Shown: piece by piece, positions 5,921-50,300 of the stretch
How the letters are laid out: each line of letters starts with the position of its first letter
How positions within the stretch are numbered: position 1 is the stretch's first letter
Sequence record: OR427838.1
Direction: 5' to 3' (one strand)
DNA from: Escherichia phage fDHCT2
Length of the DNA stretch: 64,000 bases
Translations under genes and position numbers: made by a program
The notes under the pieces: model-generated
Seen by the model: the letters and a program-made list of their open reading frames with translations, nothing else
Told to the model about the DNA's origin: nothing
The model's database searches: none

Positions 5921-5963
5921 AGTTGACAAGGCTATAGTATCACTACCATAGCCTGATGTAAAC
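5921..5963 (-). promoter_or_regulatory. Early-type promoter element (GTTTAC -35, extended -10, conserved downstream box)
   Basis: Member of repeated element family. Confidence 0.5.
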
Positions 5964-6210: not shown

Positions 6211-6253
6211 AGTTGATAGATCTATAGTATCACGTTTAAAGGCGTTATAAACA
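6211..6253 (-). promoter_or_regulatory. Early-type promoter element (GTTTAT -35 variant)
   Basis: GTTTAT-N17-TACTAT plus conserved downstream box. Confidence 0.5.
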
Positions 6254-6893: not shown

Positions 6894-6937
6894 TAGTTGA
6901 TAAGTCTATAGTATCATGTTTAAAGGCATTGTAAACC
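6894..6937 (-). promoter_or_regulatory. Early-type promoter element
   Basis: Minus-strand GTTTAC-N17-TGA-TACTAT-AGACTTATCAACTA then SD and ATG. Confidence 0.55.
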
Positions 6938-23740: not shown

Positions 23741-23763
23741 TTTAATCTCCGATAACCATTTAT

Positions 23764-23803
23764 TTGATAGGTCTATAGTATCATGTTTAAAGCAGAAGTA
23801 AAC
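23764..23803 (-). promoter_or_regulatory. Early-type promoter element upstream of motA
   Basis: GTTTAC-N17-TGA-TACTAT-AGACCTATCAAAT; spacer contains TGCTTTA. Confidence 0.55.
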
Positions 23804-26941: not shown

Positions 26942-26982
26942 GTTGATAGGTCTATAATATCATGTCTAATGGAGATGTAAAC
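26942..26982 (-). promoter_or_regulatory. Early-type promoter element
   Basis: GTTTAC-N17-TGA-TATTAT-AGACCTATCAACTA. Confidence 0.5.
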
Positions 26983-35990: not shown

Positions 35991-36032
35991 GTTGATAGGG
36001 CAATAATATCACTACCCTACCATAGTGTATAC
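35991..36032 (-). promoter_or_regulatory. Early-type promoter element (variant -35 GTATAC)
   Basis: Conserved downstream box TGATATTATTGCCCTATCAAC. Confidence 0.45.
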
Positions 36033-41113: not shown

Positions 41114-41155
41114 AGTTGATATGTCTATAGTATCACGGTACTCGATAAAGTAAAC
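41114..41155 (-). promoter_or_regulatory. Early-type promoter element
   Basis: GTTTAC-N17-TGA-TACTAT-AGACATATCAACTA. Confidence 0.5.
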
Positions 41156-45060: not shown

Positions 45061-45261
45061 ATGGGTAGTATTTTTTACCAAATCTGGAAATTGTCCGAAA
45101 AGAAAGACAAGAAAATGATGTTAGGTTTTCTTGCGCTAGACGTGTTCCTTTGGAATCTTCTAGTAGTCCCTGTAGCCGCTAGCCAAGGGATAATTTTACC
45201 AGCGGTTACAATGGAACACGTATTAAGCATAATTGGATTCTTTAGCGGAGTTCCTGCCTAA
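45061..45261 (+). CDS. Small hydrophobic protein on opposite strand
   Basis: 66 aa; strong AGGAGG SD 7 nt upstream; lies in the 56-61 intergenic gap. Confidence 0.4.
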   Translation: MGSIFYQIWKLSEKKDKKMMLGFLALDVFLWNLLVVPVAASQGIILPAVTMEHVLSIIGFFSGVPA

Positions 45262-46286
45262 ATTTTGGAATATTTAGAAAGTCTCATTTTGGCCATTAGA
45301 CCTTGGGCTATATTAGCTTTCATATATGTCAGTACATCATTTATATCAGCTTTATCTTTCATAATCATATCATTTATATCTTTAGAAGGCCATGGAGCCT
45401 TGTCCCAGAATAGAACCCTTTCGCCAGCATCAACTAATCGTTGCATACGCTTAATTGTGTCAGGATGGCGGGGTTCATTGTCCATTACCCAGGCACGAGT
45501 TTCTTTACATGGAACTATAGCCAAATCTAACGACCCACCAGTAATTGCTATTGCATTCGGTACGAATAATGAATCGATAGGACCTTCCATTACCCAGACC
45601 AATTGACGTTCGTCGACTGTATCCATTCCATATATTTTTGTAGCTTGGTCATGAGCTTTTATTGTAATATATTTTTGTGGAGCATCTTTACGCAAGGCTC
45701 GACCCTGAAAACTTTCTATTTGTTTATCCTTATTGAAAATAGGAATAACCAAACGAGGCTCAGGCATTTCTTTAGAATAGGTCCCTGGATTCACAGAGTT
45801 CACCAATGCCGGCCATTCTTTAGTAAACCACAGCCGGTTCCATTTGTTTTCAGGAATGCAACGTAGTGTTACATATTTGATAATAGGATGGTCCTTCGGC
45901 ATTCTATCTAATCGTTCACAGAAATTAAGCTTTTCGATGACAGGCATCTTAGCTTTAATTTTTTCAGATATCTCCACCTTAGGTGCAGCTTGTCTCCCGA
46001 ACGATTGCTCTTTATGTTTCTCAAGAATATATTCTCGATATAAATCCGGCTCATATTCGTATAGATACTTCTTAATTCCTGCTGAATAGTCGCAGTTAAA
46101 ACAGTGCAGCATTACGGAGCCATCATTAGCCGGATAGGCCCAAAAACGAGCTTTGTTCTCATCTTTTTGGGAGTCGCCACATACACGACAACGACAGTTT
46201 AATTTAAAATCACTACCAGTTACTTGTCTGAATTTAGGTTGGTAATTCAAGGCACGTACAGCAAATTCTCTATCGACATATGACAT
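45258..46286 (-). CDS. 61: DNA primase gp61
   Basis: 342 aa as T4 gp61; N-terminal zinc finger CRCRVC...CFNC; TOPRIM-like core. Confidence 0.9.
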   Translation of the reverse strand: MSYVDREFAVRALNYQPKFRQVTGSDFKLNCRCRVCGDSQKDENKARFWAYPANDGSVMLHCFNCDYSAGIKKYLYEYEPDLYREYILEKHKEQSFGRQAAPKVEISEKIKAKMPVIEKLNFCERLDRMPKDHPIIKYVTLRCIPENKWNRLWFTKEWPALVNSVNPGTYSKEMPEPRLVIPIFNKDKQIESFQGRALRKDAPQKYITIKAHDQATKIYGMDTVDERQLVWVMEGPIDSLFVPNAIAITGGSLDLAIVPCKETRAWVMDNEPRHPDTIKRMQRLVDAGERVLFWDKAPWPSKDINDMIMKDKADINDVLTYMKANIAQGLMAKMRLSKYSKI

Positions 46287-46502: not shown

Positions 46503-46694
46503 TTATATTACGAAAATAGCTTTATCACCATTTGCATCAGTGACTTCATAGGTATCTTCGTGGTAAAGTGGAATAATCCAAGTCACACCATCATCAGCAA
46601 TAATATGGATAGCTTCTTGGTCTTTTGATATGATTTCATATTCTTCGAATAACTCGAATACAGAAATCTTAGAGCCCGTACACATTGCACTCAT
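46503..46694 (-). CDS. Hypothetical small protein (start refined to ATG 46694)
   Basis: Track ORF 46503..46712 starts at TTG. Confidence 0.4.
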   Translation of the reverse strand: MSAMCTGSKISVFELFEEYEIISKDQEAIHIIADDGVTWIIPLYHEDTYEVTDANGDKAIFVI

Positions 46695-46890
46695 ATTGTT
46701 CCCTTCTTTCAATCAGTTGGCGATGGGCCTTTTTAAGTTTACGAAGCTGGCGCTTAGTCGGCCGTGCAACATAAGCTTGAGTAGTTACTCGCCCAAAAAC
46801 ACCGTACTTAGGTGAAGGAGAATCGATAAAGACTTCCCACTGGCAGGAGTAACCATATACCGCTTTAGAGAATTGAGTTAAAACAAACAT
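46669..46890 (-). CDS. Hypothetical small basic protein, dispersed paralog 1
   Basis: 73 aa; C-terminal block ARPTKRQLRKLKK. Confidence 0.45.
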   Translation of the reverse strand: MFVLTQFSKAVYGYSCQWEVFIDSPSPKYGVFGRVTTQAYVARPTKRQLRKLKKAHRQLIERREQYECNVYGL

Positions 46891-46891
46891 A

Positions 46892-47326
46892 TTAACCTCG
46901 ATTCATAAAGGCATTAAAAATCTGGTCGTCAATTGAATAAACCGGAGCTTCCAGAATTTTCAACAGACTGTTTTTGATATACTTGCTAGGGATATCCATA
47001 TTAACGCGGCCGTTCAATTCGTTGTCCGGGTGGATATCTTTAAATTCAAACCCATCAAACTCAACCTTGTCCGGAAACCCGTCAGCGAAAAAATAAACCA
47101 ATTGGTGCATTGCATTGAGCGAAAATAATTTAGACTTAACAGCAATAAGTTCTTGCCAATGGTTTAATTCTCTGTTAAGAAGTTTATGAGCCATTGTAAT
47201 TCGATCATCGCTATCAACAAGAAAATAACCTAGGTATTGGTGGTCGTCGCTCCAAAACATCCTGTATGCTTGTGCATTCGGATTTTTACAACGAAGCTTT
47301 TTAATAACCAAAGTTCTGTTAATCAT
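46892..47326 (-). CDS. Hypothetical protein (start refined to ATG 47326)
   Basis: Track ORF 46892..47410. Confidence 0.5.
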   Translation of the reverse strand: MINRTLVIKKLRCKNPNAQAYRMFWSDDHQYLGYFLVDSDDRITMAHKLLNRELNHWQELIAVKSKLFSLNAMHQLVYFFADGFPDKVEFDGFEFKDIHPDNELNGRVNMDIPSKYIKNSLLKILEAPVYSIDDQIFNAFMNRG

Positions 47327-47327
47327 T

Positions 47328-47621
47328 TTACTCACCTGTAACCTCTTTAACGATGTTTTTGTTATCGAAATTAGCGTCACAATACAAAACATAGTTGTAC
47401 TGCATAACACCTGTTGAAGCTAATTGGTCGGACACTTCTTTAACCATGTCAGGACGGTCACGTTTAGTGATGTTCATGATATCGGCATAAATCTGATGTT
47501 CAACATCAGTTTGGTCGGCAGTCATAGACCACTCACAAAGGTCTTTATCCAATCCGGCCGTTACTGGAGCTGTACCACATGATGCTACGGTAAGAATTGC
47601 TGCGATTAATAACTTTTTCAT
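47328..47621 (-). CDS. Exported protein/lipoprotein, 97 aa (size and position like T4 spackle)
   Basis: Signal peptide MKKLLIAAILTVASC; AGGAG SD; early promoter element upstream. Confidence 0.5.
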   Translation of the reverse strand: MKKLLIAAILTVASCGTAPVTAGLDKDLCEWSMTADQTDVEHQIYADIMNITKRDRPDMVKEVSDQLASTGVMQYNYVLYCDANFDNKNIVKEVTGE

Positions 47622-47636
47622 TTCAATCTCCTCGTT

Positions 47637-47679
47637 AGTTGATAGGTCTATAGTATCACCACCATAGACCGTTGTAAAC
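47637..47679 (-). promoter_or_regulatory. Early-type promoter element
   Basis: GTTTAC-N18-TGA-TACTAT-AGACCTATCAACTAACGAGGAG. Confidence 0.5.
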
Positions 47680-47680
47680 T

Positions 47681-47920
47681 TTATTTTAACGAATCTTCCA
47701 AATAAATTTTACGGAATTTACGTTTTGTCTGACGAATCTGACGTTTAGTAGGCTTCACAGGAAATTCGAAGAACTCCACGTATTCCTGTTCATAATCATT
47801 ATGACCTACTGAAAGAACTAGTTCCCAGCTGCTTACGGTGCGTTGGATAAACATATTATGCTTACCAAAAGATTTATTCCAAAAAGAACTAGGAGTTGGC
47901 TTCATTAGTACAATATTCAT
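47681..47920 (-). CDS. Hypothetical small basic protein, dispersed paralog 2
   Basis: 79 aa; C-terminal block VKPTKRQIRQTKRK. Confidence 0.45.
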   Translation of the reverse strand: MNIVLMKPTPSSFWNKSFGKHNMFIQRTVSSWELVLSVGHNDYEQEYVEFFEFPVKPTKRQIRQTKRKFRKIYLEDSLK

Positions 47921-48061
47921 TTATTCCTCGCCTTCATGTTTATGAGCAATTTCTTCGAATTCGTTGTCACAGTCTATACAGGTTGCATTGTCCCAAGCAT
48001 CAAATACTGCTTGGTCTTCGCGGACCGAACAACCACATACTACACATTCTACTTCTTCCAT
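47921..48061 (-). CDS. Zinc-ribbon protein (46 aa, not in ORF track)
   Basis: CVVCGC...CIDCDN; ATG directly follows upstream stop, stop directly precedes downstream ATG. Confidence 0.45.
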   Translation of the reverse strand: MEEVECVVCGCSVREDQAVFDAWDNATCIDCDNEFEEIAHKHEGEE

Positions 48062-48265
48062 TTAGATTTCCTCAATGCGGGCATCATATTCAAAAACTTT
48101 ATTGTCATTAACAAAGGCTTTCACCAGTGCATTATTCACTTCTGCATACTGCACTGTAACCCATTCAATCATTTTTTGGTCACTAACATCCAGCGCAGTT
48201 TCTTTGGTAAACATATTACCGTTTTCAAACCAACCAATAAATACTACGATCTCTAATTTAAACAT
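48062..48265 (-). CDS. Hypothetical small protein, tandem paralog A
   Basis: 67 aa; ends YDARIEEI. Confidence 0.5.
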   Translation of the reverse strand: MFKLEIVVFIGWFENGNMFTKETALDVSDQKMIEWVTVQYAEVNNALVKAFVNDNKVFEYDARIEEI

Positions 48266-48460
48266 TTAGATTTCCTCAATACGTGCATCATGTTCATAAA
48301 CTTCTACGTCATCAACATAGGCCTTAACCAAAATACTATTGACTTCGGCGAATTGGGTAGTCACCCACACAATATCATTTTCACGTACTGAAGCTTCTTT
48401 GGTAGTGGTATCACCGTTATTAAAACAGCATACAAATTTTACCTTAACCAATTTAGACAT
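48266..48460 (-). CDS. Hypothetical small protein, tandem paralog B
   Basis: 64 aa; ends HDARIEEI. Confidence 0.5.
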   Translation of the reverse strand: MSKLVKVKFVCCFNNGDTTTKEASVRENDIVWVTTQFAEVNSILVKAYVDDVEVYEHDARIEEI

Positions 48461-48778
48461 TTAGATTTCCTCGCAGAAGGCCCATTCAGCATGATAAACC
48501 GTAGCGCCTTTAGTATCATTTAAACAAACCACATCCACCGGAGCAATTACACGATAAAGACGAGGTTCTCCTCCCACCGAACGAGCAGCTCGTCCAGCAT
48601 AAATCTTAGCCAAACCAATGTCCTCAGTAAAGAACACACGATTCAAGTTTTTCTTACGACCCGTTTCAGACAGAACTCCTGTTTCCTCAGGAGGACAAAG
48701 CATATTACCAATATTAGCAACACTACAACTTCCATGGTAATACACTTTATATTCCGCTTTACAGTCGATGGTTTTCAT
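48461..48778 (-). CDS. Hypothetical protein (start refined to ATG 48778)
   Basis: Track ORF 48461..48790. Confidence 0.5.
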   Translation of the reverse strand: MKTIDCKAEYKVYYHGSCSVANIGNMLCPPEETGVLSETGRKKNLNRVFFTEDIGLAKIYAGRAARSVGGEPRLYRVIAPVDVVCLNDTKGATVYHAEWAFCEEI

Positions 48779-48790
48779 TTTGTTCTCCAA

Positions 48791-48831
48791 GTTGATAGGT
48801 CCATAGTATCATGCCTACAGGAGAAGTAAAC
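48791..48831 (-). promoter_or_regulatory. Early-type promoter element
   Basis: GTTTAC-N17-TGA-TACTAT-GGACCTATCAAC. Confidence 0.5.
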
Positions 48832-48840
48832 CATTAAAAC

Positions 48841-48863
48841 AAAAAAGGAGCCGAAGCTCCTTA
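48841..48863 (-). terminator. Rho-independent terminator at 3-prime end of gene 41
   Basis: AAGGAGC-UUCG-GCUCCUU hairpin plus U6. Confidence 0.6.
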
Positions 48864-50300
48864 AAATTTGATAGATGCTGCTAAATCATCTAAATCGCTT
48901 CTATTAACACGCGACTGGCGATTGACCTCTGCTTGGCGGTTCATTTCACCTGTGGCCTCACGAACGGTGTTCACTGGGCCTGGGTTGGAATCGTCTTCAA
49001 CTTCGTACCAACGTTGATTTCCTTTCTTAACACCAATCTTAAATTTGTTGTAGTAGCTCTTATCACCATAACGAGATTTAAGCTGCTTAACCATCTGCAT
49101 ACCCATCTGAGCAAATTCTTCTGTCTCGACCACACCCAACATGAAGTCTGCGGTATGTGCAATACCAAAGGATTCAGCAATATCAGCCATATCGATTTCG
49201 GCTGCAACGTTCGCGCCACGAGTAGTCTGGGCTGCAGTCCACAGCAATAATTTCTTCTCTACTGCAAGTCCACGTAGTTCTTCAGCAACCATCTTAATCA
49301 ATCCGTAACTGTTTTCAGAGAAAACTTTCGTACGAGACGATGCACAGATGGCCAAGTAGTCAACGATAACGACCTGTGGGACAAAGTTTTGTTTGAGCTT
49401 GTATTCGTTTAATAATGCACGGAATGTATCGGCATTCGCACCGCCGGTAGGATACTGTTTAATCTTTAAACGACCTAAGGTAGCAGTTGAACGCCATTTA
49501 TCCATCTTAGCTTTATATTCAGGCCACGAGACATGACCATCATCGATATCATCCAGTGATACATCCAGAAGGTTGGCATCGATACGCTTAGCACATACTT
49601 CCTCTGCCATCTCCATGGAGATATAAAGAACATCGTAACCCGATTGAAGGTAATCAGCAGCCAATGAACAAAGACCAAGAGACTTACCTACGTTTGTTCC
49701 TGCTAACAATACGTTTTCAGTACCAAACTCGGCGCCGCCCTTGGTAATCTTATTCAGAATATTAAGACGGAATGGAACCTTACGTGCTTTATCGGAATAA
49801 CTTTTGAATCGTTCTTCATAGTCATCCATCCAGTCATGACCTAATTCAGAATCGAAACAAATCGATAATGCATCACGCATGATATCTGGAATAGCACCAA
49901 TACCTGGAAGTTTTCTATTTTGTTGCTCAACCGGAAGGTCGGCATTAGTTTGGATTTCAATGATTTTTGAAGTTGCATTATACATCGCTGCTTTCTGAAC
50001 GTATTTCTCCGTCTCTTTAACCAACCATTCTTGGTCTTCAGGTCCGGCATTCAGCGAACTTAAAAGCTCTTTAGCGCCTTGGTGTTCAACTTCTGAAAGC
50101 GTACTGTTATCTAATGCAATGCTCAGCGCGTTCTTAGAAGGCACTGCATTATATTCATTGACATGTTTTTTAATTTCTTTGAAAAGGGTCTTTGCAGGAC
50201 CCTGGTCAAAATAAGAATCATTCATATAAGGCCAGACCTTAGTGAAATAATCACTATTGCCTAACAGTTGAGCCAAAATAGTTTCTACCACTTCCACCAC
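48861..50300 (-). CDS. 41: Replicative DNA helicase gp41 (DnaB-like)
   Basis: 479 aa (T4 gp41 475); Walker A GTNVGKS; N-terminus SDYFTKVWPYM. Confidence 0.92.
   Translation of the reverse strand: MVEVVETILAQLLGNSDYFTKVWPYMNDSYFDQGPAKTLFKEIKKHVNEYNAVPSKNALSIALDNSTLSEVEHQGAKELLSSLNAGPEDQEWLVKETEKYVQKAAMYNATSKIIEIQTNADLPVEQQNRKLPGIGAIPDIMRDALSICFDSELGHDWMDDYEERFKSYSDKARKVPFRLNILNKITKGGAEFGTENVLLAGTNVGKSLGLCSLAADYLQSGYDVLYISMEMAEEVCAKRIDANLLDVSLDDIDDGHVSWPEYKAKMDKWRSTATLGRLKIKQYPTGGANADTFRALLNEYKLKQNFVPQVVIVDYLAICASSRTKVFSENSYGLIKMVAEELRGLAVEKKLLLWTAAQTTRGANVAAEIDMADIAESFGIAHTADFMLGVVETEEFAQMGMQMVKQLKSRYGDKSYYNKFKIGVKKGNQRWYEVEDDSNPGPVNTVREATGEMNRQAEVNRQSRVNRSDLDDLAASIKF

Follow-up and report, generated by a model that had tools for sequence, protein, structure and literature searches.

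The accessory region between genes 41 and 61 of Escherichia phage fDHCT2 contains, on the minus strand, a 46-codon open reading frame (ORF) that is almost certainly a genuine, expressed gene. It lies between a homolog of Dmd and a homolog of the TifA family (DUF7279) and encodes a small, extremely acidic protein with four invariant cysteines (hereinafter, the Cys4 protein), whose gene, in Mosigvirus, belongs to a cassette that can take the place of tifA. The genomic context tentatively suggests a role in counter-defence. In the sequence analyzed here, 64,000 nucleotides of the phage genome (OR427838.1; hereinafter, the window), the 2-kb surroundings of the gene are 93% identical to Escherichia phages 04086 and JS98, which identifies the window as that of a Dhakavirus (JS98-like, T4-type, Straboviridae).

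Coding status and distribution of the gene

The ORF (47921-48061) extends from an ATG (48061-48059) to a TAA (47923-47921) and encodes the product MEEVECVVCGCSVREDQAVFDAWDNATCIDCDNEFEEIAHKHEGEE, which yields the tryptic peptide EDQAVFDAWDNATCIDCDNEFEEIAHK. At both ends it is in direct contact with the flanking genes: the TAA of the second dmd paralog (48064-48062) abuts its start codon, and its own stop codon abuts the ATG (47920-47918) of the 61.4/tifA homolog. These contacts were described correctly in the initial annotation, which also gave the right coordinates but left the strand unstated. The same annotation considered the gene unannotated, and this holds for the 60-aa ORF track that it used but not for the databases, where the gene is already known as a PHROGs v4 family (phrog_13952) and as a GenBank hypothetical protein. 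The product matches the phrog_13952 HMM with an E-value of 4.2e-31 (107.7 bits), its residues 1-46 covering all 46 positions of the profile, and ASJ79447.1 of Salmonella phage SHP1 has the identical sequence (100%). With this and other members of phrog_13952, such as AIM50619.1 (Shigella phage Shf125875), QEA10514.1 (Enterobacter phage IME523) and PM2_036, it forms a single family over the full length, encoded at the same position in the gp41-gp61 gap. Annotated orthologs are also present in the Mosigvirus Shf125875, the Kanagawaviruses IME523 and ZX14, and Yersinia phage P8. Among the 60 listed records that bear the ORF, 42 annotate it as a "hypothetical protein", 14 omit it and 4 are unannotated altogether; the records of JS98, JS10, IME08, AnYang, VR5 and others are among those in which it is omitted.

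The substitution pattern is that of a protein-coding gene under strong constraint. In the 33-codon core of 13 distinct nucleotide orthologs, which span Dhakavirus, Mosigvirus, Kanagawavirus, Pectobacterium phage PM2 and Yersinia phage P8, the variable columns are distributed among the first, second and third codon positions as 11/8/27, and the pairwise dN is 0.04-0.26 with dS above 1 or saturated (dN/dS of about 0.1-0.2). No stop interrupts the sense frame in any of 14 orthologs examined (14 of 14 open), and each of the other frames contains stops in at least a subset of these. Together with the full-length PHROG match, these observations bear out the proposal of a real small gene, and the amino-acid conservation in relatives, on which this proposal had been made to depend, is evident, the protein being retained while synonymous sites are saturated. 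On the plus strand, the gene is overlapped by two ORFs, 47936-48256 (106 aa) and 47896-48111 (71 aa), which are ruled out because their frames are broken by stops in relatives; they are shadow frames, antisense to the acid-rich coding sequence of the Cys4 gene and dmd. A search of Rfam detected no family in 47300-48900, and accordingly an RNA explanation is rejected.

The family is small and confined to phages. Using tblastn, the gene was detected in about 63 of 50,697 phage records, with a coverage that reads 76% because the low-complexity filter masks residues 1-11. Nine loci were identified in IMG/VR and only two in the JGI metagenomes, and a scan of 185,579 bacterial and archaeal species genomes yielded zero homologs. 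A word-indexed search of 5.8 billion proteins retrieved two close clusters only, and an exhaustive search of 1.84 billion representative proteins retrieved only four true clusters, three of them beyond those already found; clusters P0004, P0006, P0007, P0009 and P0010 of the latter search are low-complexity false positives. Neither of these protein searches revealed fusions of the finger to larger domains. The C-terminus of phrog_6361 shows a marginal match to the finger (E = 0.011). A predicted structure of the protein is present in BFVD, and literature searches found no paper on it.

Conserved residues, charge and predicted fold

In an alignment of 17 sequences with identity down to 49%, the invariant residues are M1, E2, E3, C6, C9, E15, A18, V19, F20, D21, A26, C28, C31, E34 and E46, which include an AVFD motif (residues 18-21). 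The two C-x-x-C pairs noticed in the initial annotation are CVVC (6-9) and CIDC (28-31), and all four of these cysteines are invariant. Of the longer string CVVCGC quoted there, C6 and C9 stand but the conservation of C11 does not extend to distant homologs; C14, which many Dhakaviruses have, is likewise not conserved. Because the pattern CxxC-x8-30-CxxC is found in only 1 of the 241 ATG-initiated ORFs of 30-80 aa in the six frames of the window, namely this one, its occurrence exceeds chance expectation; elsewhere in the window, only the gp61 primase has such a pattern, in its zinc site. The protein is very probably a zinc-binding finger.

The C-terminal segment varies in length (totals of 39-47 aa) and is acidic in every member of the family. 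The net charge of the protein encoded in the window is -13, with 2 Lys/Arg among 46 residues, and ranges from -8 to -17 across the family.

Single-sequence and profile searches against Pfam, NCBIfam and PDB produced zero above-threshold matches. The sub-threshold matches are to generic zinc fingers (zf-LYAR, Zn_ribbon_8, zf-C4_ClpX, TFIIE-alpha, S27e, Gin and HVO_2901) and allow no assignment beyond phrog_13952. The best match to Zn_ribbon_8 has an E-value of 0.42 (11 bits vs. a cut-off of 34.4; 5 of the 17 members), and Zn_ribbon_3, with an E-value of 0.011 in 2 of the 17 members, is not above the curated cut-off. The profile of the TifA family (PF23945, DUF7279) has zero match to the Cys4 protein; the match in this locus belongs to the neighboring 79-aa gene.

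Two AlphaFold models, built on alignments of 3-6 sequences, agree with each other, and the better one has a pLDDT of about 90 over residues 1-30 and a low-confidence tail. The predicted strands are 3-5, 12-14, 18-20 and 26-28, followed by a helix (29-39). The first cysteine pair is predicted to form a knuckle in hairpin 1, and the second one to span the end of hairpin 2 (strand 26-28) and the initial turn of the helix. Judging from these models, the fold resembles a treble clef more closely than it does the two hairpins of a classic zinc ribbon, and the term "zinc ribbon" used in the initial annotation probably needs correction in this respect. Foldseek searches of PDB and BFVD with the two models reached significance for the family itself alone, all other matches having E-values of at least 0.03; the neighbors in PDB, all of them small zinc fingers (the zinc-binding domain (ZBD) of ClpX, HOIP RING1, the FwdE zinc domain and ZZ), have E-values of at least 0.3.

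Operon anatomy and exchange of the cassette

The minus-strand gene order is gp41, a terminator-like hairpin, phrog_2110, dmd paralogs A and B, the Cys4 gene, the tifA homolog, spackle, small genes and gp61 (Table 1). The five cistrons from phrog_2110 to the tifA homolog, of which the Cys4 gene is the fourth, abut without spacers between two promoter-like modules. A Shine-Dalgarno sequence (SD), GAGG, is located 8 nt 5' of the ATG of the Cys4 gene, within the last codons of the upstream gene (-EEI-stop). Similarly, the end of the Cys4 gene itself, GAGGAATAAATG, serves the tifA homolog, and the C-terminal -EE is retained in almost all orthologs.

Table 1. Coordinates of the features discussed in the text (positions in the window unless a locus is named).
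Feature	Coordinates	Strand	Remarks
gp41 helicase	48861-50300	minus	
Terminator-like hairpin after gp41	48862-48845	minus	
Early-promoter-like module GTTTAC-N17-TACTATGGACCTATCAAC	48791-48831	minus	Just past the gp41 hairpin; presumed operon start
Cistron 1, 105-aa phrog_2110 protein	48461-48778	minus	Weakly similar to Arr-type ADP-ribosyltransferases; 109 aa as a mechanical ORF, with TTG at 48790 as start
Cistron 2, dmd paralog A, 64 aa	48266-48460	minus	Pfam Dmd E 9e-16; phrog_2102
Cistron 3, dmd paralog B, 67 aa	48062-48265	minus	Pfam Dmd E 5e-20; phrog_2102
Upstream coupling junction, GAGGAAATCTAA then ATG	48059-48073	minus	SD in upstream -EEI-stop codons, stop, start
Cistron 4, Cys4 (predicted zinc-finger) gene, phrog_13952	47921-48061	minus	Core residues 1-33; acidic helix and tail 34-46
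Downstream junction, GAGGAATAA then ATG	47918-47929	minus	Final two Glu codons are the SD of the tifA homolog
Cistron 5, 61.4/TifA family, 79 aa	47681-47920	minus	Pfam DUF7279 E 9e-20; phrog_2375
Second early-promoter-like module	47638-47679	minus	Precedes spackle; ends the five-cistron unit
Spackle	47328-47621	minus	
gp61 primase	45258-46286	minus	
Copies of 15-mer GAGGAAATCTAAATG	48458-48472, 48263-48277, 48059-48073	minus	All three upstream proteins end in -EEI-stop
Copies of 20-nt module GATACTATAGACCTATCAAC	5922-5941, 6212-6231, 6896-6915, 23763-23782, 26942-26961, 35991-36010, 41115-41134, 47638-47657, 48791-48810	minus	
Swapped slot, Shf125875 Cys4 cassette	L002 1447-1640		
Swapped slot, APCEc01 tifA homolog	L017 2308-2554		

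The upstream junction is part of an exact 15-nt repeat, GAGGAAATCTAAATG, that occurs three times in the window, solely at the consecutive junctions of phrog_2110 with dmd A, dmd A with dmd B, and dmd B with the Cys4 gene. The same junction is found 5' of the ATG in nearly all orthologs examined, with slight departures in PM2 and in metagenome contig L019; the dmd genes of phages that lack the Cys4 gene end otherwise (-FRG-stop in APCEc01). The repeated junction could represent microhomology for the insertion, duplication or swap of dmd/zinc-finger cassettes.

The two promoter-like modules that delimit the unit contain a 20-nt sequence, GATACTATAGACCTATCAAC, present in nine copies in the window, all on the minus strand, vs. 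0.01 expected. This sequence includes a -10-like TACTAT and conserved downstream bases. The modules, which we take to be of the T4 early type on the basis of the T4 consensus, are probably phage early promoters with transcription start regions. The second basis for this reading is that dmd-tifA of T4 is an early operon (PMC9391042). The Cys4 gene is thus the fourth cistron of a translationally coupled unit, for which early transcription is predicted.

The complement of dmd and tifA homologs in this region is variable. Most Dhakaviruses possess one dmd type only, either A (SHP1, QL01, IME341 and vB_EcoM_005) or B (JS98, IME281 and VR5); both types are present in 04086 and ABTNLsp5. Tandem dmd paralogs recall the dmd-tifA amplifications that were selected experimentally in T4 (PMC9391042). 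The same gp41-gp61 region of the window encodes another TifA-family (DUF7279) paralog of 73 aa (46669-46890, minus strand; Pfam E 9.5e-19), so that, along with the 79-aa homolog, the phage carries two TifA-like genes.

Upstream flanks were examined for 19 loci (the window, 16 phage or IMG/VR loci and two metagenome contigs), and in all of these the Cys4 gene occupies the gp41-gp61 gap, with phrog_2110 on its 5' side. In the Kanagawavirus loci (L004, L010, L011 and L014), PM2 (L013) and metagenome contigs L019 and L020, phrog_2110 is directly upstream; one or two dmd genes precede the Cys4 gene in Dhakavirus, Mosigvirus and Yersinia phage P8. The 3' neighbor is tifA in Dhakavirus and P8, imm.1 in the Mosigvirus Shf125875, and unrelated genes in Kanagawavirus. 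Exchange of the gene is apparent from the comparison of two Mosigviruses, Shf125875 and APCEc01, in which the flanks are 94-96% identical and the zinc-finger cassette of the former, which includes the -EEI-stop end of dmd, occupies exactly the tifA slot of the latter. The gene is sporadic in Mosigvirus and looks nearly fixed in Dhakavirus (about 47 close matches vs. 54 records that cover the region). In Enterobacter phage ZX14, the ortholog is directly followed by an ORF (L014 1635-1778) for a 47-aa Cys-rich acidic protein (MRQFTCDDCGVKIPENEV...YCQDC...GEEE), which, by profile comparison, is probably a tandem paralog that has diverged (hhalign probability 66%, E = 5.5e-5).

The product names in some records of this region are erroneous: in SHP1 (L001) and Yersinia phage P8 (L003), phrog_2110 is denoted "clamp loader subunit DNA polymerase", dmd "translational repressor protein", and the tifA homolog "DNA polymerase".

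Possible functions of the Cys4 protein

In phage T4, dmd inhibits RnlA, tifA (61.4) inhibits ToxN and adfA (61.2) counters DarT, and the gp41-gp61 region has been proposed to be an anti-TA island in which other genes are "attractive anti-toxin candidates" (Srikant et al., PMC9391042). The Cys4 gene is located between anti-toxin genes, exchangeable, probably early and absent from bacteria, and its product is extremely acidic; these features fit a small inhibitor that would bind a host protein through an acidic surface, possibly one that mimics nucleic acid, on a zinc-stabilized scaffold. On the strength of this context, we tentatively propose that the product may be an early, acidic and zinc-stabilized protein that inhibits a defence protein or a nucleic-acid-binding protein of the host. 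Under this proposal, the gene would be expressed early in infection from the five-cistron unit that starts just after gp41. A single zinc ion would be held by C6 and C9 in the knuckle of hairpin 1 and by C28 and C31 where hairpin 2 ends and the helix begins, and would stabilize a mini-domain that bears the extremely acidic helix and a disordered tail. The protein would then bind and block a host protein, plausibly a defence toxin, a nuclease or another nucleic-acid-binding protein, via a basic surface of the latter, and the gene would be one more interchangeable counter-defence cassette of the anti-TA island.

The rarity of the gene among the phage records, the replacement of tifA, the differences in neighbors between genera, the probable paralog in ZX14 and the acidity maintained throughout the family are all in favor of such a role. 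On the other side, the Pfam, NCBIfam and PDB searches yielded no significant match to a characterized counter-defence family; guilt by association is a weak guide in this region because it also holds non-defence genes (spackle, imm); the near-fixation in Dhakavirus is less typical of a fast-turnover arms-race gene; and the core of the finger is highly conserved rather than diversifying.

The comparison with the known inhibitors encoded in the region is similarly two-sided. The Cys4 gene shares the operon with homologs of Dmd (T4 61.5) and TifA (T4 61.4), the inhibitors of RnlA/LsoA and ToxN, respectively, which are similarly small early cistrons, and with tifA it swaps as a cassette in Mosigvirus. 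However, a relationship in sequence or fold is absent, Dmd and TifA lack a Cys4 site, and TifA is a basic, RNA-binding protein (PMC10853763) whereas the Cys4 protein is extremely acidic. It is conceivable, if somewhat unlikely, that the protein is the founder of a counter-defence family, that is, a zinc-stabilized mini-protein that mimics nucleic acid, neutralizes a host toxin or nuclease and is interchangeable with TifA in the same slot; it would possibly imitate an RNA antitoxin or a substrate. Among phage-encoded inhibitors, Ocr, Arn and ArdA are small, acidic mimics of nucleic acid; Lar is a small zinc-ribbon protein of restriction alleviation. By analogy, the Cys4 protein may be compared with these small, early, strongly acidic or Cys4-containing accessory proteins that bind host defence proteins, but sequence similarity to them is undetectable (Lar_restr_allev matched 1 of the 17 members, with an E-value of 6.8).

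The first cistron of the unit suggests a different function. The phrog_2110 protein is similar to Arr below threshold in both Pfam (Arr-ms, E = 0.029) and NCBIfam (rifampin_ARR, E = 0.07) and is found, at 60-99% identity, in 609 phage records from T4-like phages of Aeromonas, Acinetobacter, Klebsiella and E. coli; this unusually conserved protein could be a putative mini-ART beside gene 41. The Cys4 protein might be a partner, regulator or specificity factor of this Arr-like protein, for example, one that restrains the putative ADP-ribosyltransferase or directs its choice of targets. The presence of phrog_2110 upstream in 19 of the 19 loci with an examined flank is consistent with such a partnership, as are the direct adjacency and shared coupling junction in the Kanagawavirus loci, PM2, L019 and L020, and the fact that phrog_2110 itself ends in the junction GAGGAAATCTAA (-CEEI-stop). 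However, the 609 records with phrog_2110 vs. about 63 with the Cys4 gene indicate that phrog_2110 does not depend on the latter, one or two dmd genes intervene in Dhakavirus and Mosigvirus, and the co-occurrence may reflect position only, given that phrog_2110 adjoins gene 41 in most such phages. Such a partnership is distinctly unlikely.

The predicted structure brings up the host machinery as another potential target, in which case the protein would be a factor of host takeover rather than a defence inhibitor, either a decoy of the N-terminal ZBD of ClpX or a small zinc-binding anti-sigma-like protein. The CxxC-x18-CxxC spacing is identical to that of the ClpX ZBD (a treble-clef C4 domain of about 40 aa; PDB 2ds5, 2ds6 and 1ovx), the two sequences align without gaps, and the predicted knuckle-hairpin-helix topology is the same. 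The ClpX ZBD is also the top or near-top PDB neighbor in Foldseek (TM of about 0.6 over 43 columns), and 1 of the 17 members touches the Pfam family zf-C4_ClpX with an E-value of 0.013, below the cut-off; the anti-sigma variant draws on a weak match to the anti-sigma-G factor Gin. None of these similarities is significant (Foldseek E = 0.32, hhalign probability 17%, Pfam matches below the cut-offs), and, to our knowledge, all small treble-clef fingers look alike at such a size. Furthermore, the Cys4 protein lacks the AAA+ module of ClpX and has an acidic tail instead. Homology with the ClpX ZBD is not supported by the profile comparison, and a takeover function of this kind, retained as an analogy, has a slim chance of being correct.

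Many small zinc ribbons bind DNA or RNA, and the best match of the Cys4 protein among PDB sequences is the zinc domain of TFIIE-alpha (E = 0.24), as could be expected of a nucleic-acid-binding regulator, for example, one that represses the transcription or translation of the neighboring early genes. However, this match is not significant, and the charge contradicts such a function: the strong acidity of the protein (net charge -13, -8 to -17 in the family, and 2 Lys/Arg out of 46 residues) is the reverse of what the binding of nucleic acid requires, which leaves a regulator of this type very improbable. Finally, scarcely any credence is due to an ORF without a protein function of its own, be it a spacer that relays translational coupling between dmd and tifA, a shadow ORF or an ORF that arose by chance, as its shortness and the stop-start junctions at both ends, where the last codons double as the SD of the next gene, might suggest: this reading is largely refuted by the conservation pattern, with strong amino-acid constraint that includes the four invariant cysteines and the AVFD motif, persistence of the gene without tifA in the Mosigvirus Shf125875 and in Kanagawavirus, antisense frames broken in several relatives and the sense frame in none, and the absence of an Rfam RNA from the region.

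With an annotation cut-off of 60 aa, a real gene goes unnoticed, and it is likewise missing from several reference records (JS98, JS10, IME08 and VR5). With regard to the tentatively proposed counter-defence role, a strongly constrained 46-aa cistron that is located between homologs of two experimentally proven anti-toxin genes and swaps with tifA in sister genomes is a concrete, cheap-to-test candidate among the genes flagged by Srikant et al. If the protein is indeed the founder of a counter-defence family, it would be the fourth anti-toxin of the T4-type anti-TA island.
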